The notes: generated by a model from the letters alone, not told the origin. 64,000 nucleotides of DNA from Candidatus Parcubacteria bacterium (GCA_027450205.1 DAIDJL010000002.1:205007-269006), one strand, 5' to 3'; numbered from the stretch's first letter, positions 7,241 through 60,186 are shown. A program made the numbers and translations.

Positions 7241-7245
7241 AGTTG

Positions 7246-7788: not shown

Positions 7789-7860
7789 GGTATTTGCAGC
7801 ACGCATTGCGCTATCTGCGTGATTTAATCTACCATTCTTGCTTGCTTTTTTCAATCATTT

Positions 7861-8484: not shown

Positions 8485-8729
8485 TAAAGAAGCTTCTTGT
8501 ATTTCTTCTTTTTTTAGGCGGCGGCGCGCAGCGTTCCGGCTTGCTGGCTGGCCGCCTCGGCGCTCGCCACTCACCACCCTGTGGCTCCGTAGCGCCCTTC
8601 AAAACATAAGAACATCCTTCTTTACTTCCCTCCGTCAATCTTTTATTCTGAACCAGTGGATGCGTTTGTAGCTCAGCGATAGCGTTGCTTCTCAAGGCAA
8701 CGGGATAAAGAATAGAAACGCAGCATTCA

Positions 8730-8801
8730 GGGGCGCGTAGCTCAATGGCAGAGCAGACGTCTTATACACGTCCGGTTCCAGGTTCGAGTCCTGGCGCGCC
8801 C
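8730..8801 (+). tRNA. tRNA with anticodon TAT (Ile-type, AUA decoder)
   Basis: Acceptor GGGCGCG/CGCGCCC, D-arm GCTC-AATGGCA-GAGC, anticodon stem GACGT/ACGTC with loop CTTATAC, T-arm CCAGG-TTCGAGT-CCTGG, discriminator A. Confidence 0.7.
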
Positions 8802-8820
8802 ACAATTTCTCTTTTTAGGT

Positions 8821-10790: not shown

Positions 10791-12551
10791 TTATCGCGCC
10801 GCGCGCAACGCGTTGAAGATCACCGCCACATCGATGCATTCCTGCAAAATAGCTCCGGTGACCGGAGGAATATAGCCGAGCGCCGCAAACATCATGCCAA
10901 CAACAGAAAGTCCGATGCCCCATATTATGCTTTCCTTCGCGATGCGCGTGGAGTCGTTCGCGATAAGAAGGATGGAGCGTACCCGCTCGATATCATGGCT
11001 GAGGATCGCGACCGATGCCGCTTCTATGGAGGCGCTGTTCTCGGTGCCGGAGAAAACTACGCCAACATCAGCGAGCGCGAGCGCGGGTGCGTCGTTCAAT
11101 CCGTCGCCGACCATCATCACCTTCCCCCCTCCGGCCTGTGCGGCTTTCACGATCGCAAACTTGTCTTCCGGGAGGCAGTGCGCGTGGATCGTTACGCCGA
11201 GATCTCCGAAAAGCCGCTCCGCATTCTCTTCTGAGTCGCCGGTAAGGATGGCGACCTTATAATATTTTTTTAATTGTTCGAGCAGCTTCGCGGTGCCGCC
11301 TTTTATTTGATCATCAAAGATGAGCCGCCCTGCGAGCGCGGCACCGGCGTACACATCGACAGCGATGCCATCAGCTGCCCTGGTACCCCTGGATTTTTCG
11401 ATGTGAAACACCGTGCCGTTGACCGTACCCGTGATGCCGTCACCGATCTTTTCAATGACGTCCGTTGCGGCATAGCTCGCCATGGCTTCGGAAAGGCCGC
11501 GTGCAGCCCTAGCCTGGACGACGGCCTTTGCGAGCGGGTGCAGGGAATGCAGTTCGATCGCCGCCGCCGCCGCGATGATCGCTTCTTCGGAAAATCCCTG
11601 TGCGAGATCTCTCACTTCCCGCAGGCGAGGCTCGCCGAGCGTGAGCGTCCCGGTCTTATCAAAAAAGATGGTCGTGATCTCGGAAAGCGTCTCGAGCGCT
11701 GCGGGCTTCTTTACCACGATATTTTTTCTTGACGCTTTATTGAGCCCGCCAAGGAAGCTTACCGGCGCGGCGATGAGCAGCGGACATGGCGTCGCCATCA
11801 CGAGCACGCCGAGCAGATTGCTCCACTGATGCGAAAAAAGATATGCGCCGGCGGCGAGCAAGAGTGTGATCGCCGTGAAGCCATAGTTGTAGCGCTCTGC
11901 CAGGCGTACGGTCCGCGCCGGATGTGCTTTCGCCTCTTGTACCAACCCCACGATCTTTTGGTATGTGGAATGCGAAAAATCCCCGACCACGCGCAATTCG
12001 ACGGATGATCCAAGATTGATGAGCCCGCTTTTTACGAGTCGGCCCTTTTGGTATTCTTGCGGTTCCAGCTCTCCCGTGAGGTTCGCTTCGTTCATCAGTG
12101 CGTGTTCGGAGGCAAGATATCCATCGAGCGGAACGATCTCCTCTGGCCGGATGAAGATAATATCACCCTCTTTTATATCGCGGATGCCGCGCGTTTCAAA
12201 TGTGCCGCTATCGGTCTTTACCTGGCAGGCCTTGGGTATCTTCTCGACGAAATTTTTGAGCGCGGCCTCCGCCTCGCGCGAACTGTATGCCTCAAGCGCC
12301 TCGCTTACGAGGATCATAATGGAGACGACCGCTCCGGCGATAAGCTCGTTCGTTGCGAGCGAGACTACCATTGCGAGGATGGCGATGTAGTCCAGCGAAT
12401 ACTGCCGCTGCCACATCTTTTTTACGGAATTATGTACGAGCACAAAAAGACCGATGCCGATCGCGGCAATAAAAAACAGGGAACGAAGTCCCGTTGCAAA
12501 TCCCGCGATGGTGAGCAGGAAGACGAATGAAGGGAGATAAAATTCCGCCAT
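10791..12551 (-). CDS. P1B-type heavy-metal ATPase with TPCP transmembrane motif (P1B-5-like), no N-terminal metal-binding domain
   Basis: DKTGTLT phosphorylation site, ATPCPLL in TM6, GDGLND hinge, about 8 TM helices; 586 aa. Confidence 0.8.
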   Translation of the reverse strand: MAEFYLPSFVFLLTIAGFATGLRSLFFIAAIGIGLFVLVHNSVKKMWQRQYSLDYIAILAMVVSLATNELIAGAVVSIMILVSEALEAYSSREAEAALKNFVEKIPKACQVKTDSGTFETRGIRDIKEGDIIFIRPEEIVPLDGYLASEHALMNEANLTGELEPQEYQKGRLVKSGLINLGSSVELRVVGDFSHSTYQKIVGLVQEAKAHPARTVRLAERYNYGFTAITLLLAAGAYLFSHQWSNLLGVLVMATPCPLLIAAPVSFLGGLNKASRKNIVVKKPAALETLSEITTIFFDKTGTLTLGEPRLREVRDLAQGFSEEAIIAAAAAIELHSLHPLAKAVVQARAARGLSEAMASYAATDVIEKIGDGITGTVNGTVFHIEKSRGTRAADGIAVDVYAGAALAGRLIFDDQIKGGTAKLLEQLKKYYKVAILTGDSEENAERLFGDLGVTIHAHCLPEDKFAIVKAAQAGGGKVMMVGDGLNDAPALALADVGVVFSGTENSASIEAASVAILSHDIERVRSILLIANDSTRIAKESIIWGIGLSVVGMMFAALGYIPPVTGAILQECIDVAVIFNALRAAR

Positions 12552-40060: not shown

Positions 40061-40205
40061 AACGATTTACACGTGCCCGATGCATCCGGATGTGAAACAG
40101 GATGCGCCGGGGAGGTGTCCAAAATGCGGCATGAATCTGGTAGCGGTGGATGCGGGTACGACAGAAAGTGGACATGCGCACAAATCTTCAGGCGGTTGCT
40201 GTTAA
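40041..40205 (+). CDS. small metal-binding protein (CPMHPD...CPKCGMNLV module) ending GGCC
   Basis: [37 protein letters not shown]...SSGGCC; paralogous to the N-terminus of the downstream ATPase. Track ORF 39897..40205 is an upstream extension. Confidence 0.5.
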
Positions 40206-40212
40206 CGATACA

Positions 40213-42315
40213 ATGAATAACGAATCCCAAAAACTTTATACCTGCCCCATGGATCCGGATGTCATTTCCGACCATCCCGGGGAATGCCCGAAGTGCGGCA
40301 TGAATCTGGTTCCCATGGACATGGGCGGCCATGATGGTAGTGATGCGCACGCCGGTCATGGCGGCGCCGAGCAGGATTTCAAGCGCCGCTTCTGGATCAC
40401 GCTTCCTTTCGTGCTGGTTGCCATGGCGCTCTCGCCGAACATCCAGCTATGGTTTCATTTTGAATGGACGGTTCCCGGCGGGAGCCTGTGGCTCTTCCTG
40501 ATCGGCGCCTTCGTGTTTTCCTACGGCGGCTGGCCGTTCTTCAAGGCGGCCAAGGGCGAACTGACGCATAAGAATCCTGCCATGATGACGCTCGTCGCTT
40601 TTGCCATCACCGTAGCATTTGCATTCTCCGTGGCCGCCACGTTCTTTTTCCCCGGATCATCACTCTACTGGGAGATGGCGACACTGATCTCCGTTTTCCT
40701 GCTCGGCCACTGGCTTGAGATGCGGGCGGTGCGCGGCGCGACCGGCGCTCTTTCGGAACTGGCGAAACTCATTCCGCCCTCCGCGCACCTCGCAAAAGAC
40801 GGCCAGCTTACCGACGTGCAGACTAGCCAATTGATGATCGGCGACAGGGTATTGGTAAAACCCGGCGAGAAGGTTCCGGTGGACGGCAGGGTTGTGGACG
40901 GTGAAAGTTCGGTGAGTGAAGCGATGCTCACTGGCGAATCGCGCCCGATCGGCAAAAAGGCGGGCGACGAGGTTGTGGGCGGATCGCTCAATCAGGACGG
41001 ATCGCTCACGGTCGAAGTGGCGAAGACCGGGGCGGATACGGCCATCGCTCAGATCATGAAACTCGTGCGCGAGGCACAGGGTTCCAAGCCGAACGTCCAG
41101 CATCTCGCGGATCGCGCGGCATCGGTGCTCTTTTATGTTGCCGTTGCGGCGGGTCTGATTTCGTTCGTGGTCTGGTATTTTGTGTTCCCGCAGGGGGCGA
41201 TCTTCGCCGCCACCGTGGCCGTTGCCGCGATCGTCATCGCCTGTCCGCACGCGCTCGGCCTTGCGATCCCCACGGTAACGTCCATCACGACGACCTTGGG
41301 CGCGAAGAACGGCATTTTAATCAAAGATATGAAGGGTTTGGAGATTGCGCGGAAACTTAACTACGTGGTATTCGACAAGACCGGCACGCTCACCAAGGGT
41401 GAATTCGGGGTTGTCGATATCGCCGCGTCCGGAACGTCCGATGTCCGCGATGAGAATGAACTGCTCGCGCTCGCCGCAGCCGTTGATGTGCCGTCGCAAC
41501 ATTCGATCGCGCAGGGCATCGTGAAGGCCGCCAAAGAAAAGAACCTCCGCATAGAGGAGGTCAAGGGCTTCAAATCGTATCCGGGCAAAGGGGTTTCCGG
41601 CATGGTCGGCGACAAAGAGGTTTTGATTGGCAACAAGGTGCTCATGCAGGAGCAAAATGTGGCAGGCGTAATGGACGTCGTGAGCCGCAGCGCCGAGGTG
41701 GGCACCCCGAACTACGTGGCAGTGAACGGAAAGTTTGCGGGGACGATCTTTCTCGCGGATATAGTGCGGGATGAATCCAAGGAAACCATCGCACGCTTGC
41801 GTGCGATGGGCATCAAGACGGCGATGCTCACGGGCGACACGCAGGACGTCGCCGATGCCGTCGGCCGTGAACTCGGCATCGACACGGTGTTCGCGCATGT
41901 ATTACCCGAAGACAAGGTCAACAAGGTGAAGGAGCTCCAGTATGGCGGCAATATCGTCGCCATGGTGGGCGACGGCGTGAACGACGCCGCATCACTCACC
42001 CAGGCGCACGTCGGTATCGCGATCGGGGCGGGCACAGACGTGGCGGTGGCATCGGCGGACATTGTCCTGATGAAGAGCAACCCGCTCGACGTGGCGAAGA
42101 CGATTACCCTCAGTCGCAAGACGAACCGCAAGATGGTCCAGAACCTCGCGTGGGCGACGGGGTACAACGTGTTCGCCATCCCTATCGCCGCGGGCGTGCT
42201 CTATCCTTCATTCGGCATCCTCCTCCCTCCTGCGTGGGCGGCGATCCTCATGAGCACATCGTCGGTGATCGTGGTCGGGAACGCGCTGCTCTTGAGAAAA
42301 GAAAAACTGGGATAG
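40213..42315 (+). CDS. copB: copper-exporting P1B-type ATPase, CPH subtype (CopB-like) with N-terminal CPMDPD...CPKCGMNLV domain
   Basis: [24 protein letters not shown], 8 TM; start [15 protein letters not shown] at 40213 (track 40150). Confidence 0.9.
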
Positions 42316-46195: not shown

Positions 46196-47191
46196 ATGGC
46201 AAAAAGTAAAAATAAAAAGATTCCCGGGTGGGCATGGGCTGTCTCCGGCCTTCTTGTCGGCATTGTGGGTGCATGGATCGCGGTCGAATACACGGTTGCA
46301 ATAAACCAACCGACGAATAGCGGACAACCGATTACGGCGCCACAACCGGCTCAGAACCAGGCGGCCGTGCAGCAACAGCAAGCCCAACAGCAAATATCAC
46401 AGCAGGAGATCGCAAATCTCAAGACGGAGAATGCGCAGGCACAGACGACCTTGGCACAACAACAGGCCGAAATTGCGAAGCAGCAAGAGCTTTCGCAGCT
46501 CTTTACTATCGGCAACACGCTCCAGGACTATTACAACAAAATCCGTGATGCACAGAATCTCGGATCGGCATCATGTTCTTATGGGTCCCAGTGCGAAGTG
46601 AATTTCTGGGCAGTCTTGGCGAATAACATCAACAGTGGCACAAGCTATGAGGGAACGTACAACTCGCTCACTAACCAGGGTAATTCCGGCATGTACAGCG
46701 ATGCCGCGATGGCTGCGGGGAAGCAGCTCGATACCCTCGTATTCGCCCCGTATGCGGCTGATGTCATCTCAACGGATTCCGATGCGGTGAAGATCAAGAA
46801 AATCCTCGATTTCATCGATGCAAACCTCACCTATGAGCGTGACATGCAGGAAACGCCGCGGGCACCTGCCGAAACGCTCGGGCTAAGATCGGGGGACTGC
46901 AAGAGCTATTCAATTCTTGCGAGCGCGGCATTCTCGGTCGCCGGAGTACACTCGGCTGTTATGCAGGTGGAAAACGCAAGTGGGACGCTCGGCCATGCGA
47001 TGGTGCTTGTGCAGTCAAGCGAGAACTTACCACTTTCCGAATCATATTCTGATTTGACCTCGGTTGGCCTTCCTGCTGGGAGATGGTGGGTCATCGAGCC
47101 ACAGTACACCTATGAGGAGCAACAGCAGCACCCGGACTGGTTCTCGCAGTGGAAACTGGTACACGCCGCGCAGGTGGCGCTCAGGGGATAA
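46196..47191 (+). CDS. secreted Gln-rich protein with transglutaminase-like Cys-protease core
   Basis: Signal anchor, QQQ-rich coiled coil, then GDCKSYSILASAAF...GHAMV (Cys/His). Confidence 0.55.
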   Translation: MAKSKNKKIPGWAWAVSGLLVGIVGAWIAVEYTVAINQPTNSGQPITAPQPAQNQAAVQQQQAQQQISQQEIANLKTENAQAQTTLAQQQAEIAKQQELSQLFTIGNTLQDYYNKIRDAQNLGSASCSYGSQCEVNFWAVLANNINSGTSYEGTYNSLTNQGNSGMYSDAAMAAGKQLDTLVFAPYAADVISTDSDAVKIKKILDFIDANLTYERDMQETPRAPAETLGLRSGDCKSYSILASAAFSVAGVHSAVMQVENASGTLGHAMVLVQSSENLPLSESYSDLTSVGLPAGRWWVIEPQYTYEEQQQHPDWFSQWKLVHAAQVALRG

Positions 47192-47294: not shown

Positions 47295-47660
47295 ATGGAC
47301 AATCAGCCCGTTAAAAAGTCCAAGAAAGCATGGTGGGTCATAGGTGGCATAGCGCTCGCCGTAACGATCGTTGGCATAGCGAGCGGTAATTCAAATACGC
47401 AAACTTCTGCACCTAACACTCAAACGGCGAATGTTTTCCAGCAGGTCGTTGCACCTACAGCGCCCACCCCACCAGCGCCAGCTATGCTTTCGAATAGCAA
47501 CTACTATACGAATTCCGACGGCAATACCGTTCACTCACCTGCGTATTCAAACGCTGTTCCTGTGGGAGCGACCGCGCAGTGCGCCGACGGGACATACAGC
47601 TTCAGCCAGCATCGCAGCGGCACGTGTTCGCATCACGGGGGAGTGGCGACGTGGCTATAA
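47295..47660 (+). CDS. DUF3761-like secreted protein
   Basis: TM, then YYTNSDGNTVHSP...CADGTYSFSQHRSGTCSHHGGVATWL. Confidence 0.5.
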   Translation: MDNQPVKKSKKAWWVIGGIALAVTIVGIASGNSNTQTSAPNTQTANVFQQVVAPTAPTPPAPAMLSNSNYYTNSDGNTVHSPAYSNAVPVGATAQCADGTYSFSQHRSGTCSHHGGVATWL

Positions 47661-47734: not shown

Positions 47735-50700
47735 GTGAGCATGAACGGCGATTTACAACCAAACACACAAGGGTTACCGGATGGGTTTAAGCGGGACGAT
47801 CATCAGGACTCAATTTATGAGCGCCTTAGGCGACTAGTAGGCCCCGGCCCTGCCGATTTTTACAATGACGCATGTAGGCATTTCGCTACCCAACCGCCTT
47901 TTTCCAGCGCCACCCACCTTATCGGGCATCTTATGCGCGAAATCGAAAGCGCCCTGCGAGATGTCTTAGAGCCGCTCGCCGATTCCACAAAATTGGCGGC
48001 GATCGATAAAAATAAAAAACACGACGGCACCATCAGGGTCATCTTGGACGCGCTCGGCATTCCCGAGTCAGATCCGATTGCGAAGGCCTGGCTGAGCATG
48101 GCCGGCGACGACGGATTGTACAGTCGGGCTCATCGGAATAATCTCGAGGCCGCGCGGCCGCTCGACGATGAATTTGTTGAATTTTGGGCGCAGTTCGAAT
48201 CGGTGTTGTCTGCGGTGCTCGACAAATTCGAGGGTCAGTATACAAAAGTATTCGAGACGATCGATGTTCTTGCGAAAAGATCGAATCCTACCGAGGGAGA
48301 TGCCAAGCTTTTCCTGTTGCATATCCCTAACGATTTCCTTTCCCGCACCCGTCTCTTCGATCAGATGATTGATCCCGGATGGCTGCCTTTATTGAAGGGG
48401 AAAGGGGTGTTCGATGAGGTGCCACGTCCAGAGCAGAATTTCGAAGAGCGTACCACGCGCTACTTGCCATGGCCGCCCGTGAATTACCTGATCAAAATGG
48501 CTCCACTGGATGGAAAGGCGGTGGCGGCCATCCTGCTTGCAGTGAAAGACAACGACAATGCCATAGCAAAAGGCAACCTTCTGACGATCGCTGCCAACCT
48601 TCCGAAAGAACAAAGGGAATCCATTCTGGAGAAGGCAAAGGAGTGGATGAAAACGCATCATCCGTTTTATGTAGTCGACGCAGCGAAGAAACTTGCCGGG
48701 CAATTTGCGGATGATGGGCAAACCGATTCAGCTCTCGAAATTGCGAGCACCCTCCTGGAAATTCTGCCCGATCCAAGATCGCAAGCCGGTGAGGAAAATA
48801 AGGCAGCATGGTTTTCTCCCGATCCCCAGACCCGCCTCGATGACTGGCAGTACGGAGAATTTTTGAAAAGGGATTTTCAGAAGATTGTTGCACTCGATCC
48901 GCAAAAAGCCTACGACCTCACGGCTCGGCTATTGTTGGATTTTGTGAACCTGAAGACAGGCCACTATCCCGATCACAATTTCGATGATGCGATGCACATC
49001 TCGTGCCCGTCTATCGGTGGAGGCGACGATCAGCGCGACTTCGATCGTCTGGAACGCATCTTGGTCCATGCGGTGCGCAGTACCGCAGAGGCCGTCGTGC
49101 AAAAAAATCCAGAGAAATTCCCCGCGGTAATTTCCGATTTGGAAGGCAAAAAATGGACCATCTTCCGGCGCATCGCCCTCTATATCCTGAGCGAAGCTCC
49201 TGATTCCATGCGAGATCTCATCGCGCAGCACCTCACGGACGATGCACTCTTTAATGATTCATCCTTTAGAGCAGAATACAAACTGCTTGCCGAGAAGAGG
49301 TTCCCATTGCTGACAAAAGAAGAGCAAGGCCTTATTTTCGGGTGGATCGAAAAAGCCGAACGGCCGAAGGAGATGATCGCGGCAGATAAAAACGAGTTCA
49401 CGCCGAAGCAGGCCGAAGATTATGTGAGACGGTGGCAACGAAATAAGCTCGATTATCTGGAAGGGCATCTTAACGACGATCTGAAGGAGCGCTACGCGAC
49501 GCTGCTGGCTACTCAGCCAGACCCCCCGGACGGCACCATCACCGAATGGTATGGTCCGACGAGCAGCCTGAACGCCCAGCAGTTGATCACTATGGATTCG
49601 TCCGCTATCATCGAGCACCTGAAGGCATGGGAACCGAAAAACGAGCATTTCGGTTTTGGTCCGACCAAAGAGGGGCTGGGCCGTGAAATTGTGTCTGCAA
49701 TCAAGCTGAAGCCGGAATTGTTCCGGGATCTCGCCGATGAATTTAAGGGGCTAGATCCGACCTATATCCGCTCTTACATCTCGGGATTTGAAGAGGTTGC
49801 CCGGAAAGGGACGGCGCTTGATTGGCCTGCAATGTTCTCGCTCATCCAGTGGGTTATGGATCAGCCGCGGGAGATGCCGGGCAGGAGGGGCGGCGATATG
49901 GATCAGGACCCCGACTGGGGATGGACGAGGAAAGCCATCGCTTCGCTTTTCACGCATGCGGCCAATGCGAACCAAATCCCATTCGAGATGAGAAAGCAGT
50001 TTTGGAAAGCGTTGGAGCCGCTTACCGACGATACGGATCCGACTCCAGGCAAGGAAAAAATCGATGAGAATTCATTTGCAAATGATGCCTACGGATGGAC
50101 GATCAACACAACCAGAGGGGAAGCGATGAGTGCACTGATCGAGTATGCATTGTGGGTATACCGCAACACGGAAAAACTCCCCAACGGGAAAGAGGAAATC
50201 AAAAAAGGATTCGGCATTATGCCCGAAGTGAAAGAAGTTCTAGAAAAACACCTCGATCCGAAGGTCGATCCTTCCATCGGAGTGCGTGCCGTCTATGGAA
50301 GGTTCTTGCCGTGGCTCATATTCATGGACGAACCCTGGGTCATTAAGAACCTCGAGAACATCTTCCATCGGGGTGAATTCGGCGAACCTCTTTACGCCGC
50401 CGCATGGGATACCTACATGATGCATGTCCCAGGCGCATACAATCGCCCTTTCGAAGTGCTGCAAGATCAGTACAAAGAAGCGGTGAGGAATCTCGGCAAG
50501 GTAAAAAGGAAACAGGGTCGGTTTACTGACCGCGATGAACGCGTCGCCGAACAATTAATGATCTTCTTTTGGCGCGACAAAGTTAAGCTGAGCGACAACC
50601 TTTTCAAGTCCTTTTGGGAGAATGCCGATGCCTCTCTCCGCGGTCATGCGATTAGCTTCGTCGGACGGAGCATCAAGAATATTGAAGATGTTCCGCCACC

Positions 50701-51139
50701 CGAGGTCATCGTCGCCCTAAAGGGACTCTGGCAGAACCGCATTGACGCACTCGCGAAAGCGGACGACAAAAAGCAATTCGCCGAAGAAATGGCTGCATTT
50801 GGCTGGTGGTTCGCATCGGGGAAGTTCGACGACGAATGGAGCGCGGCCCAGTATTTGGCCGCTCTCGACATCGGGACGAAATTCCAATCCGATCACTTCG
50901 TGCTGCAACGTCTTGTGGAATTGGTAAAAACAATGCCATTTGAAGCGGTGCGGATTTTGACCAAGCTGCTTTTGGCCAAGGATCAGGCGCAATGGAGGGT
51001 GGCAGGGAATAAAAATGAAATCACGCAAATCCTTTTGGCGGGGTTAGGCAGTGCAGATTCAACCGCTCAAAATGAAGCACGGGATTTGATCAATCGATTG
51101 GTGGCAAGAGGATACGACGATTTTCAGGCATTACTTTAA
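47735..51139 (+). CDS. large (1134 aa) cytoplasmic alpha-helical repeat protein of unknown function
   Basis: Uninterrupted ORF, no signal peptide, no P-loop recognised by eye; immediately followed by a protease gene. Confidence 0.7.
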   Translation: MSMNGDLQPNTQGLPDGFKRDDHQDSIYERLRRLVGPGPADFYNDACRHFATQPPFSSATHLIGHLMREIESALRDVLEPLADSTKLAAIDKNKKHDGTIRVILDALGIPESDPIAKAWLSMAGDDGLYSRAHRNNLEAARPLDDEFVEFWAQFESVLSAVLDKFEGQYTKVFETIDVLAKRSNPTEGDAKLFLLHIPNDFLSRTRLFDQMIDPGWLPLLKGKGVFDEVPRPEQNFEERTTRYLPWPPVNYLIKMAPLDGKAVAAILLAVKDNDNAIAKGNLLTIAANLPKEQRESILEKAKEWMKTHHPFYVVDAAKKLAGQFADDGQTDSALEIASTLLEILPDPRSQAGEENKAAWFSPDPQTRLDDWQYGEFLKRDFQKIVALDPQKAYDLTARLLLDFVNLKTGHYPDHNFDDAMHISCPSIGGGDDQRDFDRLERILVHAVRSTAEAVVQKNPEKFPAVISDLEGKKWTIFRRIALYILSEAPDSMRDLIAQHLTDDALFNDSSFRAEYKLLAEKRFPLLTKEEQGLIFGWIEKAERPKEMIAADKNEFTPKQAEDYVRRWQRNKLDYLEGHLNDDLKERYATLLATQPDPPDGTITEWYGPTSSLNAQQLITMDSSAIIEHLKAWEPKNEHFGFGPTKEGLGREIVSAIKLKPELFRDLADEFKGLDPTYIRSYISGFEEVARKGTALDWPAMFSLIQWVMDQPREMPGRRGGDMDQDPDWGWTRKAIASLFTHAANANQIPFEMRKQFWKALEPLTDDTDPTPGKEKIDENSFANDAYGWTINTTRGEAMSALIEYALWVYRNTEKLPNGKEEIKKGFGIMPEVKEVLEKHLDPKVDPSIGVRAVYGRFLPWLIFMDEPWVIKNLENIFHRGEFGEPLYAAAWDTYMMHVPGAYNRPFEVLQDQYKEAVRNLGKVKRKQGRFTDRDERVAEQLMIFFWRDKVKLSDNLFKSFWENADASLRGHAISFVGRSIKNIEDVPPPEVIVALKGLWQNRIDALAKADDKKQFAEEMAAFGWWFASGKFDDEWSAAQYLAALDIGTKFQSDHFVLQRLVELVKTMPFEAVRILTKLLLAKDQAQWRVAGNKNEITQILLAGLGSADSTAQNEARDLINRLVARGYDDFQALL

Positions 51140-51175
51140 GCCGCGCTTATAAAAATCTGATAGAGTTAATTTGTC

Positions 51176-51874
51176 ATGATCCCGGACTTAATTCTTACGG
51201 GTGTAACTCTCATTAAAACATTCTCGACCGAATTGGCGGGGCAGAAAACCCGGCCGATTCCGGTCGATATGGCAACGGGGTTCTTCTACTCGCGCACCGA
51301 AAAGCTTTATCTGATTACGAATAAGCACGTCATCTATGGAGATTATTTTTGGAGCGAGGCAGCCACGCCACAGGTCAGCCTGTTTAGTATTCTGCTATAT
51401 GAAAATCCAAAAGATTTAACGCAGAAAAAATGGGTTGATATGCCCTTGGTGGTGGACGACAGGAATATATGGCTGGAACATCTTCGAAGGGTTGATGTCG
51501 TAGCAATCCCGCTCCCGCCAGACATCAACCCGCAGAATTACGCGGTCACTCCGCTCGTCAGTTTTTCTTCGCCCGTTGCCAATACCGACATCTTCACCGT
51601 TGGCTATCGGCGAGATTTATTTAACGCGGCTACTCCGGAGCCGATCGATGAGATCGAGCCAATTATGACGACAGGCCGCCTGTTAAGAGTCGCTCCGACA
51701 AGGATGCCCGCAGATATAGAAACTCACGTCGGGATGAGCGGCAGTCCGGTCTTTGCGGGATTGCCGGACAGGAACAACGAACTCATCGGAGTCCATTCAG
51801 GCCAAAATTCGGGACTCGCCGTGGTTTGGAATGCGAAGCTGATATCGGAGATAATCGAGCAACTTCCGCAATAG
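51176..51874 (+). CDS. cytoplasmic trypsin-like (S1/chymotrypsin-fold) serine protease
   Basis: His (ITNKHVI), Asp (VDVVAIPL), Ser (GMSGSPVF) triad in the correct order; no signal peptide; 232 aa. Confidence 0.65.
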   Translation: MIPDLILTGVTLIKTFSTELAGQKTRPIPVDMATGFFYSRTEKLYLITNKHVIYGDYFWSEAATPQVSLFSILLYENPKDLTQKKWVDMPLVVDDRNIWLEHLRRVDVVAIPLPPDINPQNYAVTPLVSFSSPVANTDIFTVGYRRDLFNAATPEPIDEIEPIMTTGRLLRVAPTRMPADIETHVGMSGSPVFAGLPDRNNELIGVHSGQNSGLAVVWNAKLISEIIEQLPQ

Positions 51875-52030: not shown

Positions 52031-52414
52031 ATGACCCCGACTTCGACGGCCCAGTTTATCACAGATCTATTTCAAAAGACGGAGGTACTCGCGGAACAGC
52101 AGGCTGCAGTGTTTCTGAAGATGCTCTTGATATCGGTCTGGACATACTTCAAGCCATATCTTCCTTATGTCGTAACGATCCTCTTTGGCGGGCTGATCAT
52201 TGCGTCGGTGAAGGCGATGTTCGGGAAAACGGGCATGTTGGGCAGTCTGCTTTACCACATTTTCTATTTCGCCGTTCTGGGCATCGTGCTTTGGATCATG
52301 GGACTACAACTCGTTTTCAATCCCTATTTTGATTTGGTCTGTTTTGTCATCTATCGTCTGTGTTACTGGTTGACCGGCATTGTCTTGGAAAAATTTAAAC
52401 ATGCGCGATTATAA
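52031..52414 (+). CDS. membrane protein (4 TM)
   Basis: 127-aa hydrophobic ORF. Confidence 0.4.
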   Translation: MTPTSTAQFITDLFQKTEVLAEQQAAVFLKMLLISVWTYFKPYLPYVVTILFGGLIIASVKAMFGKTGMLGSLLYHIFYFAVLGIVLWIMGLQLVFNPYFDLVCFVIYRLCYWLTGIVLEKFKHARL

Positions 52415-52945
52415 TTTTATCTTCTCTTTCTTCTTTGATCGAATTTCCAATCGCGCGCCTCGCTTAGGGAAGACGATAACGTGCTCGGACTGGTATCTGT
52501 TTTGTCGATAATCCTCGAATTCAATCGTGAGCACAAGCACGCCGTCACCGCCGAAATCATCTTTGCTGATCGGAATCCGATAACCATCCGAAGGAACGGC
52601 GGCATAGTCCAATAACTGCGGCGTTCCTTTCTGGAACCAATAGCGGTTGAGATATACGGTATATGTGCCAACACTCTTCACGATAACATCCATGTTCTGC
52701 GGCTGGAAGTAGCCCGTCGCGGCGGCCTCTGGCAGAGAATTGACCGGGATTGCTTGTACCGACAGTTCCACGAAATGCTCGGCGTCCGTCTGCTTTGCCT
52801 GCAACGCCTTTATGCCTTCGTTGATTTCATTCTGCTTCTCGCCGATCTTCTTGGCGCAATAAGCTGCCCACCATGCGACGCCAACGGCGATTACGGCTGC
52901 GGCGGCAGCAACCCATGTGGCTACGGTCTGACTCGTGTTGTCCAT
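52409..52945 (-). CDS. membrane-anchored protein
   Basis: N-terminal TM WVAAAAAVIAVGVAWWAAY; 178 aa. Confidence 0.4.
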   Translation of the reverse strand: MDNTSQTVATWVAAAAAVIAVGVAWWAAYCAKKIGEKQNEINEGIKALQAKQTDAEHFVELSVQAIPVNSLPEAAATGYFQPQNMDVIVKSVGTYTVYLNRYWFQKGTPQLLDYAAVPSDGYRIPISKDDFGGDGVLVLTIEFEDYRQNRYQSEHVIVFPKRGARLEIRSKKKEKIKL

Positions 52946-52999: not shown

Positions 53000-53476
53000 A
53001 TGAGTCGCCCATCAAAAAAGATTACCCCTAGCGAACCAAAGGCACTAGTCATTCAGAAAAGGCTAGAGTATGTCGTCGTGCCTAAGGAGTCCGCCTTAAA
53101 GATCGTGCGGGATATGCTCGGCGCGGATAAAGCAATCATTTTCAGCAAGGACGCTATACCGAAAGAGCTTTTCCTCACCAGATCCGGTGAATTATATCGC
53201 GGCGACAACCGTGCGCAGTTTTCATTCATGTTCGAAAACCGCCGTGCCGCTCTTATTAGGGCGTTCCTCGGAAATGGAAATGATTTTATTCCAGGCGTGG
53301 ACCTCCAGGAAGAGGCTGGGTATAAAACCAAGGAGTCGATGTATAAGGCCATCGACGCTATCAATATGAACGTACGGCGTCAGCTCGGCATCCAGGAAAA
53401 GGAATTGATTGAAAGTAGGGGTGCTAAGGGCTTCCGCATCACTCCCGCGTACAAAATTATCCGCGCAAAAGAGTAG
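53000..53476 (+). CDS. winged-helix DNA-binding protein (OmpR/CadC-type C-terminal effector-like)
   Basis: ...MYKAIDAINMNVRRQLG...ESRGAKGFRI resembles the trans_reg_C wing. Confidence 0.4.
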   Translation: MSRPSKKITPSEPKALVIQKRLEYVVVPKESALKIVRDMLGADKAIIFSKDAIPKELFLTRSGELYRGDNRAQFSFMFENRRAALIRAFLGNGNDFIPGVDLQEEAGYKTKESMYKAIDAINMNVRRQLGIQEKELIESRGAKGFRITPAYKIIRAKE

Positions 53477-54027: not shown

Positions 54028-54456
54028 ATGAATGAAAACAATGAAGACGTGGATCTCGCGGCACTTTTAGCTAAGAATCGCGATGAAAGGGAAACAATAC
54101 GATGGCTGAAGCGGCGTCAAAAAAATAGAACCTATTATCTCGAACATAAGGGCGTGATTAAGGAGCGGTCGCTAAAAAATTATTACCTAAAGCGAGAGGA
54201 AAAAGAACAAGCGGAGAAAATACAAGGAATGGGTACTGAACAATCGGCGGAAAGGATTGGCAGGTACGTCATCCTGGTATTCTGGGCTTCATGCATATTT
54301 GCCGGGATGGCAGTCGCCGTGTGGTTGTCGAACAAGCAGAAAAAACCGGACGCGTTGTCCTTGAATCAAGGAAATAAGGAATCGGATGTCGAAGAGGGAA
54401 ATTCATCAAGTTTTCCGTTTGAAAAGCCTCAAGCCAAGTATTGGGGATTAGGGTAG
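54028..54456 (+). CDS. membrane protein with charged coiled-coil N-terminus
   Basis: 142 aa; one TM. Confidence 0.35.
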   Translation: MNENNEDVDLAALLAKNRDERETIRWLKRRQKNRTYYLEHKGVIKERSLKNYYLKREEKEQAEKIQGMGTEQSAERIGRYVILVFWASCIFAGMAVAVWLSNKQKKPDALSLNQGNKESDVEEGNSSSFPFEKPQAKYWGLG

Positions 54457-54653: not shown

Positions 54654-56252
54654 ATGGAAAAATCAGCAGAGAAAATTAAATACTTCATGTACGCTCGCAA
54701 ATCGTCCGAGAGCGAGGATCGGCAGATGGCGTCTATCGAATCCCAGATTGACGAGCTGAAAAAGCTTGCCAAAGAAAACAATCTCGAGATCGTCGAGGTG
54801 TTTTCCGAATCAAAGTCGGCGAAAGCGCCGGGTCGCACGGAGTTCAGGAAAATGATCGAGCGCATTCAGGAAGGTGAAGTACAAGGTGTCATCTGCTGGA
54901 AGCTGAACCGGCTGGCGAGGAATCCTGTTGATGGCGGGGAAATCAGCTGGCTGCTTCAGCAGAGTGTCATCAAGCACATCCAGACGTATGGGCGGAGCTA
55001 TTACCCGACCGATAACGTCTTAATGATGAGCGTGGAGTTCGGCATGGCGAACCAATTTGTGAAGGACTTGAGCGTGGATACGAAGCGCGGCATGCGGGCA
55101 AAGGCGGAGCGAGGATGGTGTCCCGGTCCGGCTCCCGTCGGATATCTCCATAATCCCATTAAGAAACAGGGCGAAAAGGAGGTTCTTTCCGATGAAAAGC
55201 GTTTTGGCATCGTCTCAAAATGCTGGGCGATGATGCTCATGGGAGCGCATACGGTGCCACAGGTGTGGGAGGTTGCGGTGAACCGGTGGGGCCTTACCGG
55301 TCGCATGGGGAAGAAGCTCAGTTTGAGCAACATGTATGCTTTGTTTGCTAATCCCTTCTATTGCGGAGAGTTTGAGTATCCTCTTGGAAGCGGTATCTGG
55401 CATCAGGGGAAGCACGAGCCGATGATTACCCGGAAAGAATTCGAGCGCGTGCAGACCATTATGGGCTGGGGCAACAAGTCACGGCGGAAGACGCATGACA
55501 TTTCCATGCGCGGCCCGATCCTGTGTGGGGAGTGCGGCGCAATGATTACAGCCGAGGAGAAAGTCAAAATCCAAAAGAATGGAAATCGCCATGAATACAC
55601 TTACTACCACTGTACTGGGCGAAAAAACAAGAATTGCTTGCAGAAGCGCATCCGCATTGAAGAGAAGGAGTTAGAGCGACAGGTTAAGGAAATCTTTTCA
55701 AAGGTTGAAATCCCGCAGGAGTTTTATGAGTGGGCCATGGATGTATTACGCGAGTCGAATGAGGCGGAGTCGACAACTCGTGCGAAGATCACCGACAGTC
55801 AGCGGGCAGAATACGATCGTAGCGTGAAGATGATCGACGCCATCATCGATATGCGGGCGCGTGGCGAAATCACCGAGGAAGAGTTTACGCGACGCAAGAC
55901 ATCGCTGCTTACGGAAAAACATCACTTACAAGGGCTTATTAACGATGCCGACAAAGGTGTAGATGATTGGCTCGCAACGGCCGACAAGTATTTCAACTTC
56001 GCGGCGAATGCCAAGCGGAAGTTCGAAAACGGCACATCCGACGAGATCCGGGAGCTACTAACCCTCTTAGGTTCGGACCTCCTCTTAACGCAAGGAAAAC
56101 TCAGTGTTTCCTTGGCCGAACCACTCATCGTGATCGAAAAATTAGCGCCGGGAGCACGACTCATAAATGAGAGGTTTGGACCTGCAAAAAATGCAGAAGA
56201 TATAAAGGAATTAAGAACGTTATACGCTCAAAATTCAACAAGGGGTGCCTAA
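54654..56252 (+). CDS. large serine recombinase (resolvase catalytic domain plus recombinase and zinc-ribbon domains)
   Basis: N-terminal YARKSSESEDRQMASIESQ (catalytic Ser region), recombinase domain, Cys4 CGECG...C..C, C-terminal coiled coil; stop codon lies inside tRNA-His. Confidence 0.85.
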   Translation: MEKSAEKIKYFMYARKSSESEDRQMASIESQIDELKKLAKENNLEIVEVFSESKSAKAPGRTEFRKMIERIQEGEVQGVICWKLNRLARNPVDGGEISWLLQQSVIKHIQTYGRSYYPTDNVLMMSVEFGMANQFVKDLSVDTKRGMRAKAERGWCPGPAPVGYLHNPIKKQGEKEVLSDEKRFGIVSKCWAMMLMGAHTVPQVWEVAVNRWGLTGRMGKKLSLSNMYALFANPFYCGEFEYPLGSGIWHQGKHEPMITRKEFERVQTIMGWGNKSRRKTHDISMRGPILCGECGAMITAEEKVKIQKNGNRHEYTYYHCTGRKNKNCLQKRIRIEEKELERQVKEIFSKVEIPQEFYEWAMDVLRESNEAESTTRAKITDSQRAEYDRSVKMIDAIIDMRARGEITEEEFTRRKTSLLTEKHHLQGLINDADKGVDDWLATADKYFNFAANAKRKFENGTSDEIRELLTLLGSDLLLTQGKLSVSLAEPLIVIEKLAPGARLINERFGPAKNAEDIKELRTLYAQNSTRGA

Positions 56253-56315
56253 CGGGAATCGGACCCGTATTGCCGCTGCCACAGAGCGGAGCTTTACCAT
56301 TAAGCTATAGGCACC
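56244..56315 (-). tRNA. tRNA-His (anticodon GTG) with genomically encoded G-1
   Basis: G-1 plus acceptor GTGCCTA/TAGGCAC, D-arm GCTT-AATGGTA-AAGC, anticodon stem CCGCT/AGCGG with loop CTGTGGC, T-arm ACGGG-TCCGATT-CCCGT, discriminator C. Confidence 0.8.
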
Positions 56316-56494
56316 ATCATTGGTTGCGGCCACCATCATTGAATTTGCCGCCCCTGGCGGGCGGCCCATCCGCATCATTAATGTACACGGCTTTGGCTGA
56401 TTTTTCAATATTTTGGGAGTATGATTAGGGCATGGTGTAGTACTCATTACCGTTTTGAGGGGTCATATTAATCAGCTAATTTTACGCACATTCC

Positions 56495-57745
56495 ATGAAC
56501 TATTTCGAAGTACAAAAACACGATCCGCAGGTATACGAGATCATCAAGCGCGAGGAGCAGCGGCAGAAAGAAGGCATCGAATTGATCGCAAGCGAGAATT
56601 ATGTTTCCGCGGCGGTGCTTGAGGCGATGGGCTCCGTGCTCACCAATAAATATAGTGAAGGCTATCCGGGTAAGCGCTATTACGGCGGCAACGAGATCAT
56701 CGATCAGGCTGAGACATTGGCAATCGAACGCGCGAAGGAGTTGTTCGGTGCGGAGCATGTGAACGTGCAGCCGCTTTCAGGTTCGCCGGCGAATCTGGCT
56801 GTGTATATGGCGCTCTTACAGCCGGGCGACAAGGTATTGGGATTTTCGCTTGACCAGGGCGGACATCTTTCGCACGGGCACCCGCTCAATTTTTCCGGAA
56901 AGCTGTATACGATCATTCCCTATTTCGTAAATAAAGAAACCGAGATCATCGACATGGACGAAGTGGAAGCGATCGCGATGCGCGAGAAGCCAAAAATGAT
57001 CCTGGCCGGATTCTCCGCGTACTCGCGCTCGATGGACTGGGCGCGTTTCCGCGCGATCGCGGACAAGGTGGGCGCGTTCCTCTTCGCCGATATTGCGCAT
57101 ATCGCGGGACTCGTGGCGGGGAAGCAGCTTGAGAATCCGGTGCCGTTCTGTGATGTTGTTTCAACGACCACTCATAAGACCTTGCGCGGCCCGCGCGGCG
57201 CGATGATCATGTGCTGCGAGCAGTTCGCATCCGCGATCGATAAAGCGGTGTTTCCCGGAGTGCAGGGCGGCCCGCACGATCATATCAATGCCGCAAAAGC
57301 GGTGGCGTATGGCGAGGCGCTCAAGCCGGAGTTCGTGGAATATTCCAAAGCGGTGATCGCGAACGCCCGTGCGCTCGCGGCCGCACTGCAGGGGAAGGGG
57401 TACCGTATCATATCCGGGGGTACGGATAACCATCTGATGCTTGTCGATCTTTTTGGCAGCAAGAATATCACTGGCAAGGAGGCGGAAAAGGCTTTGGAAA
57501 AAGTCGGCATCTCGATCAATAAGAATATGATCCCGTTCGATCCGCGAAAGCCGCTCGACCCGTCAGGGATTCGTCTGGGCACGCCGGCACTCACCACGCG
57601 CGGCGCCGGTGAAGGCGACATGAAGACGGTTGCTGACCTGATGGACGAAACGCTTGCGCATCGCGAAGACGATGCGGCGCTTGCGGCGGTCCGGGAGAAA
57701 GTGAAGAAATTCTCGCTGCGATTCCCCGTGCCTGGGATTGAATAA
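56495..57745 (+). CDS. glyA: serine hydroxymethyltransferase
   Basis: Canonical SHMT sequence incl. PLP-Lys region VVSTTTHKTLRGPRG; 416 aa. Confidence 0.95.
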   Translation: MNYFEVQKHDPQVYEIIKREEQRQKEGIELIASENYVSAAVLEAMGSVLTNKYSEGYPGKRYYGGNEIIDQAETLAIERAKELFGAEHVNVQPLSGSPANLAVYMALLQPGDKVLGFSLDQGGHLSHGHPLNFSGKLYTIIPYFVNKETEIIDMDEVEAIAMREKPKMILAGFSAYSRSMDWARFRAIADKVGAFLFADIAHIAGLVAGKQLENPVPFCDVVSTTTHKTLRGPRGAMIMCCEQFASAIDKAVFPGVQGGPHDHINAAKAVAYGEALKPEFVEYSKAVIANARALAAALQGKGYRIISGGTDNHLMLVDLFGSKNITGKEAEKALEKVGISINKNMIPFDPRKPLDPSGIRLGTPALTTRGAGEGDMKTVADLMDETLAHREDDAALAAVREKVKKFSLRFPVPGIE

Positions 57746-58379
57746 ATCGGTTAATCTATTTTTAATGTCGGCAGTCGCGCATCATAAAAAAATCGCCCAC
57801 CTCAAAAAGAGTGATCCGATATTGGGAGCCGTCATCGAGGCGACCACGCTGCGCGAGATCACCATCACCCGCGCGCCGTTCGAAGCGCTCGTGGAGGCGA
57901 TCGTGAGCCAGCAGCTTTCGATCAAGGCGGCCGACACGATCTTCAGCCGGCTTGCCGCGCTTACGCCCGGGAAGAAGTTTCCGACGCCGCGCCAGATCCT
58001 CGCGATACCCGCATCCAAGATGCGCAAATGCGGCCTATCTAAAATGAAAGTGAGCTTTATAAAAGACCTCGCGCGCAAAACACTCGACGGCACACTCGAT
58101 TTTAGGCACATGGATACGATGAGCGACGAGGAGGTCATTGAGCATCTCGTGAATGTAAAGGGGATCGGGCGTTGGACGGCGGAAATGTTCCTTATCTTTT
58201 CGTTAAAACGCGACGATGTGTTTTCGTTCGGCGATCTTGGCTTGCGCAACGGCCTCAAAAAGATATATAAGTTGAAAGGCGCACCGACGCCCGCGCAGGC
58301 CGCGCGCATCACGGCAAAGTGGAAGCCGTATCGGAGCTTGGGTGCGCGCTATCTCTGGGCAAGTTTGGATAACAGATAA
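57738..58379 (+). CDS. alkA: HhH-GPD DNA glycosylase (AlkA/3-methyladenine glycosylase II-like)
   Basis: VKGIGRWTAEMFLIF...D (helix-hairpin-helix, Gly/Pro-rich loop, catalytic Asp). Confidence 0.75.
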   Translation: MNKSVNLFLMSAVAHHKKIAHLKKSDPILGAVIEATTLREITITRAPFEALVEAIVSQQLSIKAADTIFSRLAALTPGKKFPTPRQILAIPASKMRKCGLSKMKVSFIKDLARKTLDGTLDFRHMDTMSDEEVIEHLVNVKGIGRWTAEMFLIFSLKRDDVFSFGDLGLRNGLKKIYKLKGAPTPAQAARITAKWKPYRSLGARYLWASLDNR

Positions 58380-58411
58380 AGATTAAAAAAATCGTTAAAA
58401 TAAAAAACAGC

Positions 58412-59254
58412 ATGATCATTGACGGCAAACTCATCGCAAACGATATTATAGAGCGTCTGCGCGCATTGCCTCGGCCAGCCGGAAAGTTTTTCGGCGCGGT
58501 GGTGGTGGGCGACGATCCCGCATCACTCAATTTTTTAAAACAGAAAGAGCGCGTCGCGCGTGAGCTTGGCATTGAGTTCCGATTGCATCAGTTACCGTTG
58601 GGTATTACGACCGACGCTTTGCGCGCGGAGATCGGTCGGCTCGCATCGCCAAAAACATGCGGGGCATTTATTGTGCAGTTGCCGTTGCCGGAGTCGATCA
58701 ATCGATATTATGTTTTGAATGCGATCCCAAAGGAGAAAGATGTTGATTGTTTAAGCGAGGCGGCACTCGGCGCGTTCTACACGGAGCGCGGGAAGATCGT
58801 GCCGCCATCGGTGGCGACCGTTGAGAAAATTTTGGCGCACGCGCAACGCGACATTTCCGACGCGGCTGCGCCCGGCGCGTTGCGTGAGCTGAAGGCGGTC
58901 GTGATCGGCGCAGGGTTTTTGATCGGCAAGCCCGTCGGCTTTTGGTTGCAAAATCGCGTGGCGGAACTGGTGGTTCTGGATGCCGCGGTAAAAAATATCC
59001 ACGACAAGCTGGGCGACGCGGATATCGTGGTCGCGGGAGCGGGCCATGCCAAGCTCTTTAATGCGAACAACCTCAAGGATGGCGCGATTGTGATCGATTT
59101 TGGTTTCAATCACGATGCCAACGGCAAGATCGTCGGCGACTTCGACCCCGCCGGCGCGCACGATAAAAACATCGCGTACACCCGGACTCCCGGCGGCACC
59201 GGTCCGGTGCTCGTGGCTGAGCTGTACGAAAACTTTTACAAAATGAACTCTTAG
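58412..59254 (+). CDS. folD: bifunctional methylenetetrahydrofolate dehydrogenase/cyclohydrolase
   Basis: Typical FolD N- and C-domains (IIDGK..A, GRS..VGKP, PGGVGP.T); 280 aa. Confidence 0.9.
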   Translation: MIIDGKLIANDIIERLRALPRPAGKFFGAVVVGDDPASLNFLKQKERVARELGIEFRLHQLPLGITTDALRAEIGRLASPKTCGAFIVQLPLPESINRYYVLNAIPKEKDVDCLSEAALGAFYTERGKIVPPSVATVEKILAHAQRDISDAAAPGALRELKAVVIGAGFLIGKPVGFWLQNRVAELVVLDAAVKNIHDKLGDADIVVAGAGHAKLFNANNLKDGAIVIDFGFNHDANGKIVGDFDPAGAHDKNIAYTRTPGGTGPVLVAELYENFYKMNS

Positions 59255-59329
59255 TGGTGCGCGCTGAGGGAGTTGAACCCCCGACCCACTCGGTGTAAAC
59301 GAGTTGCTCTACCGCTGAGCTAAGCGCGC
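59255..59329 (-). tRNA. tRNA-Val (anticodon TAC), CCA encoded
   Basis: Acceptor GCGCGCT/AGCGCGC, anticodon loop TTTACAC, T-loop TTCAACT, 3' ACCA. Confidence 0.8.
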
Positions 59330-59979
59330 CGACGAAAAGAATAGTAGCGAAAATGGGCGCACTTTGCAATCGGCAAGAATTTTTATCCCCAGAAGAGTGT
59401 GGGTTATGCACAGCTTTTTCAGAAATATCATCTATAATGAATTTAGGCATTTTAATTTTTGATCAAACAAGCGGGGAGGCTGAATCATGACCGGTGTTTT
59501 GGTTACTGTGGAATGTGGGGGGAGATGCGGGCACGTTGCGAACATCCCTGGCAGTGCGGCTTGCGACCTGTTTCTCGAGAATGGAAAGAGAGATCCAGAT
59601 CGGCTGGTTCTCTGCGTCGACTGTCAGATATGGTTTGCGACGATGGTGGCTTGGGCCACTCCGAGCAGAATTAGCGAGCCAGTGCCGCTTGCAACGATCG
59701 AAAAATGATTCGCGACGTCTAGGTGGCGTTCGCGGGGCCCCGATTTTTTCGGGGCCTCTTTCTCGGGAAACAGTAACAGGATCGCCTTCTTGGACAATCC
59801 TGTTTTTGATCTGTCGGGCCGCAGGGAATTGGACCCTGTCTACCTGCTCCCAAAGCAGGCGTACTACCGGTATACGACGGCCCGTTATACATCGGCGCAT
59901 CACGCGCCGCACAAGCCTCTTTAAAGTATCCTACTTTTGGTTTAGAATCAATGCGACGAAAGCAATTCGTGCGATCCAT

Positions 59980-60051
59980 GCCCCTGTAGCTCAATGGATA
60001 GAGCAGGTCTCTTCTAAGGACTTGATGTGGGTTCGATTCCTACCGGGGGCA
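59980..60051 (+). tRNA. tRNA-Arg (anticodon TCT)
   Basis: Acceptor GCCCCTG/CGGGGGC (one G.U), D-arm GCTC-AATGGATA-GAGC, anticodon loop CTTCTAA, T-loop TTCGATT. Confidence 0.7.
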
Positions 60052-60071
60052 CAGGAAAAATATTATTAAAT

Positions 60072-60105
60072 AAAAATAGAGCAATGGTCCAGCCATGCTC
60101 TATTT
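60072..60105. terminator. bidirectional terminator hairpin between convergent tRNA genes
   Basis: aaaaatagagca-atggtccagcca-tgctctattttt; A-run on one side and T-run on the other. Confidence 0.55.
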
Positions 60106-60115
60106 TTACAAACTG

Positions 60116-60186
60116 TGCCGCGAGAGAGAATCGAACTCACTTACTCCGCTCTTCAGGCGGATGCTCTACCATTGAGCTATCGCGGC
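60116..60186 (-). tRNA. tRNA-Phe (anticodon GAA)
   Basis: Acceptor GCCGCGA/TCGCGGC, D-arm GCTC-AATGGTA-GAGC, anticodon stem TCCGC/GCGGA with loop CTGAAGA, T-loop TTCGATT, discriminator A. Confidence 0.8.

Follow-up and report, generated by a model that had tools for sequence, protein, structure and literature searches.

A predicted HEPN-like effector joined to a Dsr1/Avs7-type sensor, and its probably unrelated protease neighbour, on a small element of a Candidatus Parcubacteria bacterium

Does a gene for a very large helical protein, followed at short distance by a gene for a trypsin-like serine protease, represent a new two-gene immune system? This question is raised by a stretch of 64,000 nucleotides (nt) from a Candidatus Parcubacteria bacterium (GCA_027450205.1, DAIDJL010000002.1:205007-269006), read on one strand and hereafter called the window. 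The original prediction, made from the sequence alone, had proposed that the two genes might form a novel sensor-plus-protease defence module. The pair is, on the evidence below, most probably an accident of neighbourhood and not a new two-gene system. The locus probably consists of two immune modules, each a single gene and independent of the other, that share a small serine-recombinase element beside a tRNA-His gene, the first combining a HEPN-like effector with a Dsr1-type sensor and the second being a PDC-S45-like protease.

Both open reading frames (ORFs) stand as originally described, on the same strand and 36 nt apart, coding for 1134 and 232 amino acids (aa), respectively; the first has a GTG start, with an in-frame ATG two codons on (47741). 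A consensus scan of the 36-nt gap revealed no promoter-like or terminator-like site, which makes co-transcription of the two genes plausible.

Co-occurrence of the two genes

Homologues of the large protein are numerous. More than 120 full-length homologues of 1100-1170 aa, all of them unnamed, were found in a collection of 5.8 billion proteins; a profile of the N-terminal domain matches 1551 representative clusters, and the family comprises at least 1,500 clusters at 50% identity. Eighty loci were taken from species-representative genomes, and the loci retrieved stem from Patescibacteria, Chloroflexota, Actinomycetota, Acidobacteriota, Planctomycetota, Cyanobacteria, Bacillota, Pseudomonadota and one Bathyarchaeia archaeon. 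Co-occurrence with the protease was assessed in 154 loci, comprising 69 full-length genome loci and 85 further loci, mostly metagenomic, and was found in none of them. A hidden Markov model (HMM) of the protease family matched no ORF within 4 kb on either side of the large gene in the 69 full-length loci, no protease-family ORF is present in the 85 further loci, and tblastn with the window protease returned no hit in 83 loci. All-against-all clustering of the neighbours in the 69 genome loci revealed no conserved partner gene; the commonest neighbours are serine recombinases (12 loci) and subunits of type I restriction-modification (R-M) systems (5-6 loci). The 124 nearest neighbours form a heterogeneous set, and no trypsin-like family is among their 25 commonest Pfam families. 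Seen from the other side, none of the 11 loci of protease relatives with readable surroundings has a homologue of the large protein beside the protease gene.

Two of these 124 nearest neighbours, a set drawn from loci L004-L077, match Peptidase_U49, the family of the Lit protease. In the classical member of this family, the trigger is a peptide of the phage capsid in combination with EF-Tu.

The protease itself matches Pfam Trypsin_2 with 37.9 bits against a gathering score of 27.6 (E=3.7e-9), and the intact His/Asp/Ser triad recognised earlier (H51/D107/S188, with S188 in GMSGSP) proved invariant in an alignment with 13 relatives. Its N-terminus aligns with the mature start of leaderless relatives; two distant relatives (P0131 and P0137) have hydrophobic N-terminal extensions. 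All 14 family members match the PADLOC model PDC-S45 (best E=8e-35), 12 match the LmuA protease type and 10 match RT-Protease_XI. The window protease is the shortest and most divergent of them, with two internal deletions relative to the family; it matches PDC-S45 with E=1.1e-5 over aa 31-118 only, and also matches phrog_7688. Its closest relative (P0122, 74% identity) adjoins conjugative coupling proteins, another follows a Hypoth_Ymh gene in a defence island (L084), and others are solitary genes of P2-like prophages, with an integrase, replication gene A, tail or baseplate genes, or an S24 repressor as neighbours. The Hypoth_Ymh gene was considered as a possible sign of a conserved pairing of HEPN and protease, an idea that was dropped when BLASTP gave no likeness to the N-terminal domain of the large protein. 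We infer that the protease is an independent cargo gene of PDC-S45 type, probably acquired separately, and that it may be co-transcribed with the large gene by accident of position. The defence role once suggested for it survives in so far as PDC-S45 is a candidate defence family, but not as part of a two-gene module.

Architecture of the large protein

AlphaFold models the large protein with confidence as an all-helical chain (predicted local distance difference test, pLDDT, 87.4; predicted template-modelling score, pTM, 0.74), in keeping with the helical character first ascribed to it, and in this model a HEPN-like domain runs straight into a solenoid. The whole protein has no Pfam match, and no P-loop, AAA, NACHT or nuclease family was detected in it with Pfam or NCBIfam; searches of Pfam, NCBIfam and PHROGs with the protein and its halves returned nothing except a weak match to Dsr1. 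Sequence and profile matches in the PDB were set aside as chance or repeat-type only (designed PPR proteins, kinesin coiled coils).

The sensor region is tied to Dsr1 by profile comparison. The PADLOC Dsr1 model (PDLC04166) aligns over profile positions 549-1129 of 1227 with aa 421-1034 of the large protein (E=2.4e-41) and is matched by all 40 aligned family members (best E=1.4e-60), and the NCBIfam Dsr1 model (NF041818) gives a partial match (E=2.3e-7, 29 bits against a cut-off of 1400). Sensors of the split forms described below align to the large protein from aa ~207 onward. On these alignments, aa ~200-1134 form a helical solenoid that is homologous to Dsr1 outside its SIR2 domain, in the C-terminal sensor, and the earlier impression of a sensor-like protein is thereby given a name. 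Fold searches with the solenoid return generic HEAT/ARM solenoids (importins, CAND1, PP2A-A).

Conservation within the family is highest in the N-terminal ~180 aa. They contain the motifs HL(L/M)REIESALR and (R)AHR, and H61, H65, R68, E69, E71, S72, R75, H96, W119, H133 and R134 are invariant or nearly so. This domain matches HI0074, RnlA, LsoA, the HEPN domain of sacsin and AF0298, as well as the HEPN domain of AbiA, Cas13b, Csx1, Csm6 and Las1, and the HEPN match recurs with the full-length model of the large protein. The model thus predicts a domain with the HEPN helical-bundle fold in effector position. The canonical HEPN motif Rx4-6H being absent, we describe it as a HEPN-like domain with a non-canonical conserved constellation, made up of H65-x2-R68-E69-x-E71-S72 on the long second helix and A-H133-R134 ahead of the last long helix. 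H65, R68, E69 and H133 are strictly kept across divergent members (~25% identity) and in the split small proteins, and such a pattern of His/Arg/Glu conservation is typical of an active site; the chemistry of the domain would be that of an RNase. The absence of any catalytic motif from the large protein, as first reported, therefore holds for recognisable sequence motifs but not for the N-terminal ~180 aa, with their HEPN fold and invariant His, Arg and Glu residues.

Three family members (P0026, P0089 and P0090; 1185-1310 aa) show an extra Xre-type helix-turn-helix (HTH) in precomputed Pfam matches (HTH_3, HTH_31, HTH_37), which would be a further N-terminal fusion. Partial N-terminal matches that had been considered as alternative architectures (L064, L068, L071 and others) proved to be fragments, frameshifts or contig ends.

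The Avs7 sensor has been described as common to defence proteins without a STAND NTPase, Dsr1 included (PMC13581612; preprint PMC12803255; Nature 2026). Among these non-STAND proteins with an Avs7-type sensor is a protein of Streptomyces sp. NBC_00271 described as containing a HEPN-like RNase (PMC13581612). Another Streptomyces, sp. NBC_00212, encodes on a plasmid a protein annotated as hypothetical (WP_331721222.1, 1090 aa) that shares its N-terminal domain (hhalign probability 100%, E=2.6e-42) and its architecture with the window protein; from this we conclude that the published NBC_00271 variant very probably belongs to the same family. The view that the locus resembles no described system is thus superseded, since both the sensor family and a HEPN-like variant have been described (PMC13581612). 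The combination of a HEPN-like domain with an Avs7/Dsr1 sensor is pictured in the literature and is not captured as a family of its own by Pfam, NCBIfam or PADLOC.

Exchange of effectors and the mobile setting

A profile of the C-terminal 714 aa of the large protein retrieved proteins of ~1130 aa together with a second population of ~955-990 aa, in which an upstream gene overlaps the start of the sensor gene. When the 85 further loci were classified by domain coordinates, 29 contained fused HEPN-like forms (1083-1201 aa), 34 contained split HEPN-like forms with an upstream protein of 221-276 aa, and seven contained split forms with a separate SIR2_2 protein of 299-346 aa, confirmed by Pfam; the remainder comprised four apparent frameshifted fused forms, six loci with another or unknown upstream gene and five contig edges. 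The small upstream protein aligns with the window N-terminal domain over 139 collinear columns (hhalign probability 88%, E=3.2e-6) and has the H-x2-R-E and A-H elements in common with it; it is a divergent homologue. Because this homologue is separately encoded upstream in 34 loci, the N-terminal domain is a separable module occupying the place of SIR2.

The split HEPN-like gene commonly overlaps the start of the ~960-aa sensor gene by roughly 26-59 nt. The SIR2_2 gene immediately precedes the gene for a ~980-aa sensor and in most cases overlaps it by 1-4 nt (L101, 2569-6464; L142, L161, L173, L175, L176 and L182), and the two are effectively a two-gene split Dsr1 with a sensor of the same clade as the window protein. 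One sensor clade thus uses interchangeable effectors, either HEPN-like (fused or in trans) or SIR2 (in trans). Separately encoded effectors of this sensor are found upstream with overlapping stop and start, never downstream. In addition, the same sensor is combined with an AAA_16 ATPase in a plasmid protein from a haloarchaeon, an arrangement that would be expected of Avs7-like STAND proteins. Upstream of some other split sensors lie genes without a match to the HEPN-like profiles or to the SIR2 query (L157, 295-1023; L164, 1253-1702; L165, 7-507; L171, 235-1074); one of them has a sub-threshold match to pP_pnuc_1, a predicted pPIWI-associated nuclease (E=0.004), and these genes may be further alternative effectors.

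Several split forms lie inside type I R-M operons (L087, L088, L089, L090 and L100), in the orders HsdR-HsdM-HsdS-[small]-[sensor]-Mrr_N and HsdM-HsdS-[small]-[sensor]-HsdR; another follows PglZ in a BREX locus (L102), and further split loci fall within L103-L182. Fused forms also follow HsdS in several genomes. In its position between hsdS and either hsdR or Mrr-like genes, the split HEPN-like pair recalls the PrrC of EcoprrI; PrrC and RloC are HEPN anticodon nucleases embedded in type I R-M loci.

In the window, both genes are carried on what we take to be a small integrative element, about 8.6 kb or more in length, beside the tRNA-His gene (Table 1), and the earlier idea of a recombinase-bearing defence island is upheld, on the scale of an islet, by the serine recombinase, the tRNA-His gene and the relatives in type I R-M and BREX loci. 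The recombinase matches Pfam Resolvase, Recombinase, Zn_ribbon_recom and SHOCT and the phrog_95 integrase family (E=2e-56). Past the tRNA-His gene follow housekeeping genes, namely SHMT, FolD, several tRNA genes and the gene for ribosomal protein S1. The close relatives of the large protein (44-57% identity) are mostly from bacteria of the candidate phyla radiation (CPR), and several of them have a homologue of the recombinase: in L001, L003 and L004 it is found 2-3.5 kb downstream of the large gene, and in L059 and L075 at another place in the retrieved locus. The 3' end of the recombinase gene overlaps an opposite-strand tRNA-Asn gene in L003 (12537-14180) and an opposite-strand tRNA-Trp gene in L004 (13549-15332), in the same layout as in the window. 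The recurrence of this overlap in three elements, each time with a different tRNA, suggests that these belong to a family of small serine-recombinase elements which target tRNA genes and have the HEPN-sensor gene as cargo. At the left end of the element, no att repeat, direct repeat or displaced tRNA-His fragment was found in the window, and the G+C profile of the window has no sharp element boundary.

Mobile neighbours are also found more widely: relatives of the large gene adjoin serine recombinases, Tn7-like genes and insertion sequence (IS) elements, and a Streptomyces plasmid copy of the family stands beside Tn7-like genes. The distribution of the family is patchy, over many bacterial phyla and one archaeon, which is consistent with horizontal transfer, and no member was detected among 2.9 million viral contigs (IMG/VR). 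Context, distribution and absence from these viral contigs together are the signature of a mobile host defence gene. A 789-aa sensor-only relative lies between IS3 and IS256 transposases on the Legionella pneumophila conjugative plasmid NZ_CP016871.1 (L184, 3010-5379), and has probably lost its N-terminal effector through IS insertion.

Table 1. Position, strand and supporting basis of the features of the locus, in window coordinates
Feature	Coordinates	Strand	Basis
Candidate single-protein defence gene: HEPN-like effector with Dsr1/Avs7-type sensor	47735-51139	+	ORF, homologues, AlphaFold model
N-terminal HEPN-fold domain, aa ~20-182, predicted effector	47792-48280	+	
Alpha-solenoid sensor region, aa ~200-1134	48332-51136	+	Dsr1 profile matches, fold searches
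Sensor core, aa 421-1034, matching the non-SIR2 part of Dsr1	48995-50836	+	PADLOC PDLC04166
Trypsin-like serine protease, 232 aa, predicted cytoplasmic; divergent, shortened PDC-S45 member	51176-51874	+	Pfam Trypsin_2, PADLOC
Small ORF between protease and recombinase	52031-52414	+	ORF list
Small ORF between protease and recombinase	52409-52945	-	ORF list
Small ORF between protease and recombinase	53000-53476	+	ORF list
Small ORF between protease and recombinase	54028-54456	+	ORF list
Large serine recombinase (integrase) of the element	54654-56252	+	Pfam, PHROGs
tRNA-His, overlapping the recombinase stop region; probable integration site, right end of the element	56242-56314	-	ARAGORN

The four small ORFs between protease and recombinase gave no significant match in NCBIfam and PHROGs (all four) or in Pfam and PADLOC (the first three), and have no homologues in related loci; they are presumed to be cargo or regulatory genes of the element. 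Directly upstream of the large gene lie genes for a transglutaminase-like protein (46196-47191) and a DUF3761 protein (47295-47660), which likewise have no homologues in related loci. Farther away, a heavy-metal P-type ATPase gene (40150-42315) has at its start two 44-nt direct repeats, 75% identical (40107-40319), which encode tandem CPxC-type metal-binding (HMBD) motifs, and a second P-type ATPase is present at 10791-12551. The window is tRNA-rich for 64 kb, with eight tRNA genes in two loose groups (5037-8803 and 56242-60186), five of them within 4 kb around SHMT, FolD and rpsA.

Competing explanations and known systems

The mechanism that we propose for the large protein follows by analogy from Avs7 and Dsr1: SeAvs7 and EcDsr1 are both triggered by the phage major capsid protein, and disruption of the effector abolishes defence (PMC13581612, PMC12803255). 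The HEPN-fold domain would replace the SIR2 NADase of Dsr1 as effector, and the solenoid would bind a conserved structural protein of the phage, most likely, as in EcDsr1 and SeAvs7, the major capsid protein with its HK97 fold. Binding would relieve autoinhibition or cause the HEPN-like domains to oligomerise. The second route is the more probable, since the active sites of HEPN proteins usually form across dimers. Once activated, the domains would cleave RNA (tRNA, rRNA or mRNA) and stop translation, and the outcome would be abortive infection or growth arrest.

Several points weigh against this picture. The link between the sensor and Dsr1 comes from sequence profiles, and the structural matches are to generic HEAT/ARM solenoids only. 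Identity to the Dsr1 profiles is low and sensor specificity can drift, so that homology to Dsr1 gives no guarantee that the capsid protein is the trigger. The published functional tests cover Avs7 and Dsr1, and none was found for HEPN-like members. No conserved copy of Rx4-6H is present in the family alignments, and the N-terminal domain could be non-catalytic or act in a different way. As regards the independence of the two genes, their same-strand 36-nt spacing without a terminator suggests co-transcription and makes a local functional link conceivable, and the contig of P0122 begins 130 nt upstream of the gene, leaving its upstream neighbour unreadable.

These last two observations are the starting point of the explanation closest to the original prediction, namely a genuine, locally evolved two-gene system in which the large protein senses infection and the protease acts as second effector, activator or regulator, for example by cutting either a target in the host or the sensor itself, in the manner of Avs2-trypsin, Lamassu-protease and CHAT/caspase-linked systems. 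It draws further strength from the recurrence of trypsin-like domains as defence effectors, including those matched by the protease family (LmuA protease type and RT-Protease_XI) and the fused trypsin effector of Avs2-trypsin-MBL, but is unlikely in view of the complete lack of trypsin-like neighbours in the 154 sensor-family loci and of large-protein homologues in the 11 readable loci of protease relatives. Moreover, the large protein already has a domain in effector position, the trans effectors of its sensor are encoded upstream with an overlap and not downstream, and the protease family is catalogued as a single-gene candidate. A catalytically dead HEPN-like domain, serving as oligomerisation, regulatory or RNA-binding module while toxicity comes from another protein, a host factor or the protease, would account for the missing Rx4-6H motif. 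We regard it as doubtful, since H65, R68, E69 and H133 are retained at such divergence, the domain sits exactly where SIR2 sits and alternates with it, and the authors of the published variant also class the domain as a HEPN-like RNase (PMC13581612).

It is conceivable that the domain is a new catalytic HEPN type with a site formed by H-x2-R-E and A-H, triggered by capsid, and that the co-transcribed PDC-S45-like protease has been recruited as second output or sensor regulator; if true, the window locus would be a rare hybrid two-effector system, but we would not expect this to be the case. Far less probable still is a non-immune role of the large protein as a housekeeping or element-maintenance HEAT-repeat scaffold, such as a transfer or replication factor of the element. 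The generic solenoid matches and the repeated company of serine recombinases in the closest relatives would agree with such a role, but the Dsr1 profile match is specific and strong, a recombinase is nearby in only 12 of the 69 loci, many relatives lie in R-M or BREX operons or in plain chromosomal contexts, the distribution is patchy in a way that is consistent with horizontal transfer, and the N-terminal domain alternates with a SIR2 NADase effector.

Two independent immune modules therefore remain the preferred reading of the locus. It removes the sensor-plus-protease pair as a false lead. It also places a large and widespread family of hypothetical proteins of ~1,100 aa, known from CPR bacteria, Chloroflexota, Actinomycetota, Acidobacteriota, Cyanobacteria and Bathyarchaeia and without a model in Pfam or NCBIfam, in the Avs7/Dsr1 superfamily of capsid sensors, with RNase activity as predicted output. 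The fused HEPN-like, split HEPN-like and split SIR2 forms show clearly how effectors can be exchanged in nature on a single sensor, and the fact that they often lie within type I R-M or BREX operons suggests defence loci built in layers. These two aspects could guide annotation, through DefenseFinder and PADLOC models, and the choice of candidates.

Among known systems, Dsr1 is the nearest to the large protein. Both are single genes of similar product length (~1100-1250 aa) with an N-terminal effector and a C-terminal sensor, the C-terminal sensor solenoid of Dsr1 (~700-900 aa) is homologous to that of the window protein, and close relatives of the window sensor occur with a separate SIR2_2 gene. 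Unlike Dsr1, the window protein has no SIR2 NADase (no SIR2 Pfam match with the whole protein or with aa 1-420, and a profile alignment that begins only at position 549) and remains far below the NCBIfam equivalog cut-off; a HEPN fold takes the N-terminal place, and the predicted output is RNA cleavage and not NAD+ depletion. Avs7 and the non-STAND proteins that share its sensor belong to the same sensor superfamily, and the window protein resembles the latter in having no STAND NTPase and a HEPN-like N-terminus, whereas Avs7 additionally has a STAND ATPase and uses EF-Tu as scaffold. Published AlphaFold3 models show the Avs7/Dsr1 sensor as bilobed and sharply bent (PMC13581612). The HEPN RNase toxins (HepT/SO_3166, RnlA/LsoA) and the HEPN anticodon nucleases PrrC and RloC differ from the window domain, which lacks Rx4-6H, an MNT antitoxin and an ABC-ATPase domain and is presumably controlled by the fused solenoid sensor.

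The protease, with its Trypsin_2 fold and triad, is closest to PDC-S45 and has solitary relatives in prophages and defence islands, although it is the most reduced and divergent among its relatives and PDC-S45 is itself a defence candidate. The proteases of LmuA-protease systems and of RT-Protease_XI (UG/Abi reverse transcriptases) resemble it as trypsin-like effector domains. Avs2-trypsin-MBL has a trypsin effector fused to its STAND ATPase sensor, an association that is conserved (bioRxiv 10.64898/2026.08.25.746987). This system embodies the idea of a large repeat-containing sensor in control of a trypsin-like protease, whereas in the window the protease has a gene of its own downstream of the sensor gene, and the two are not conserved together.

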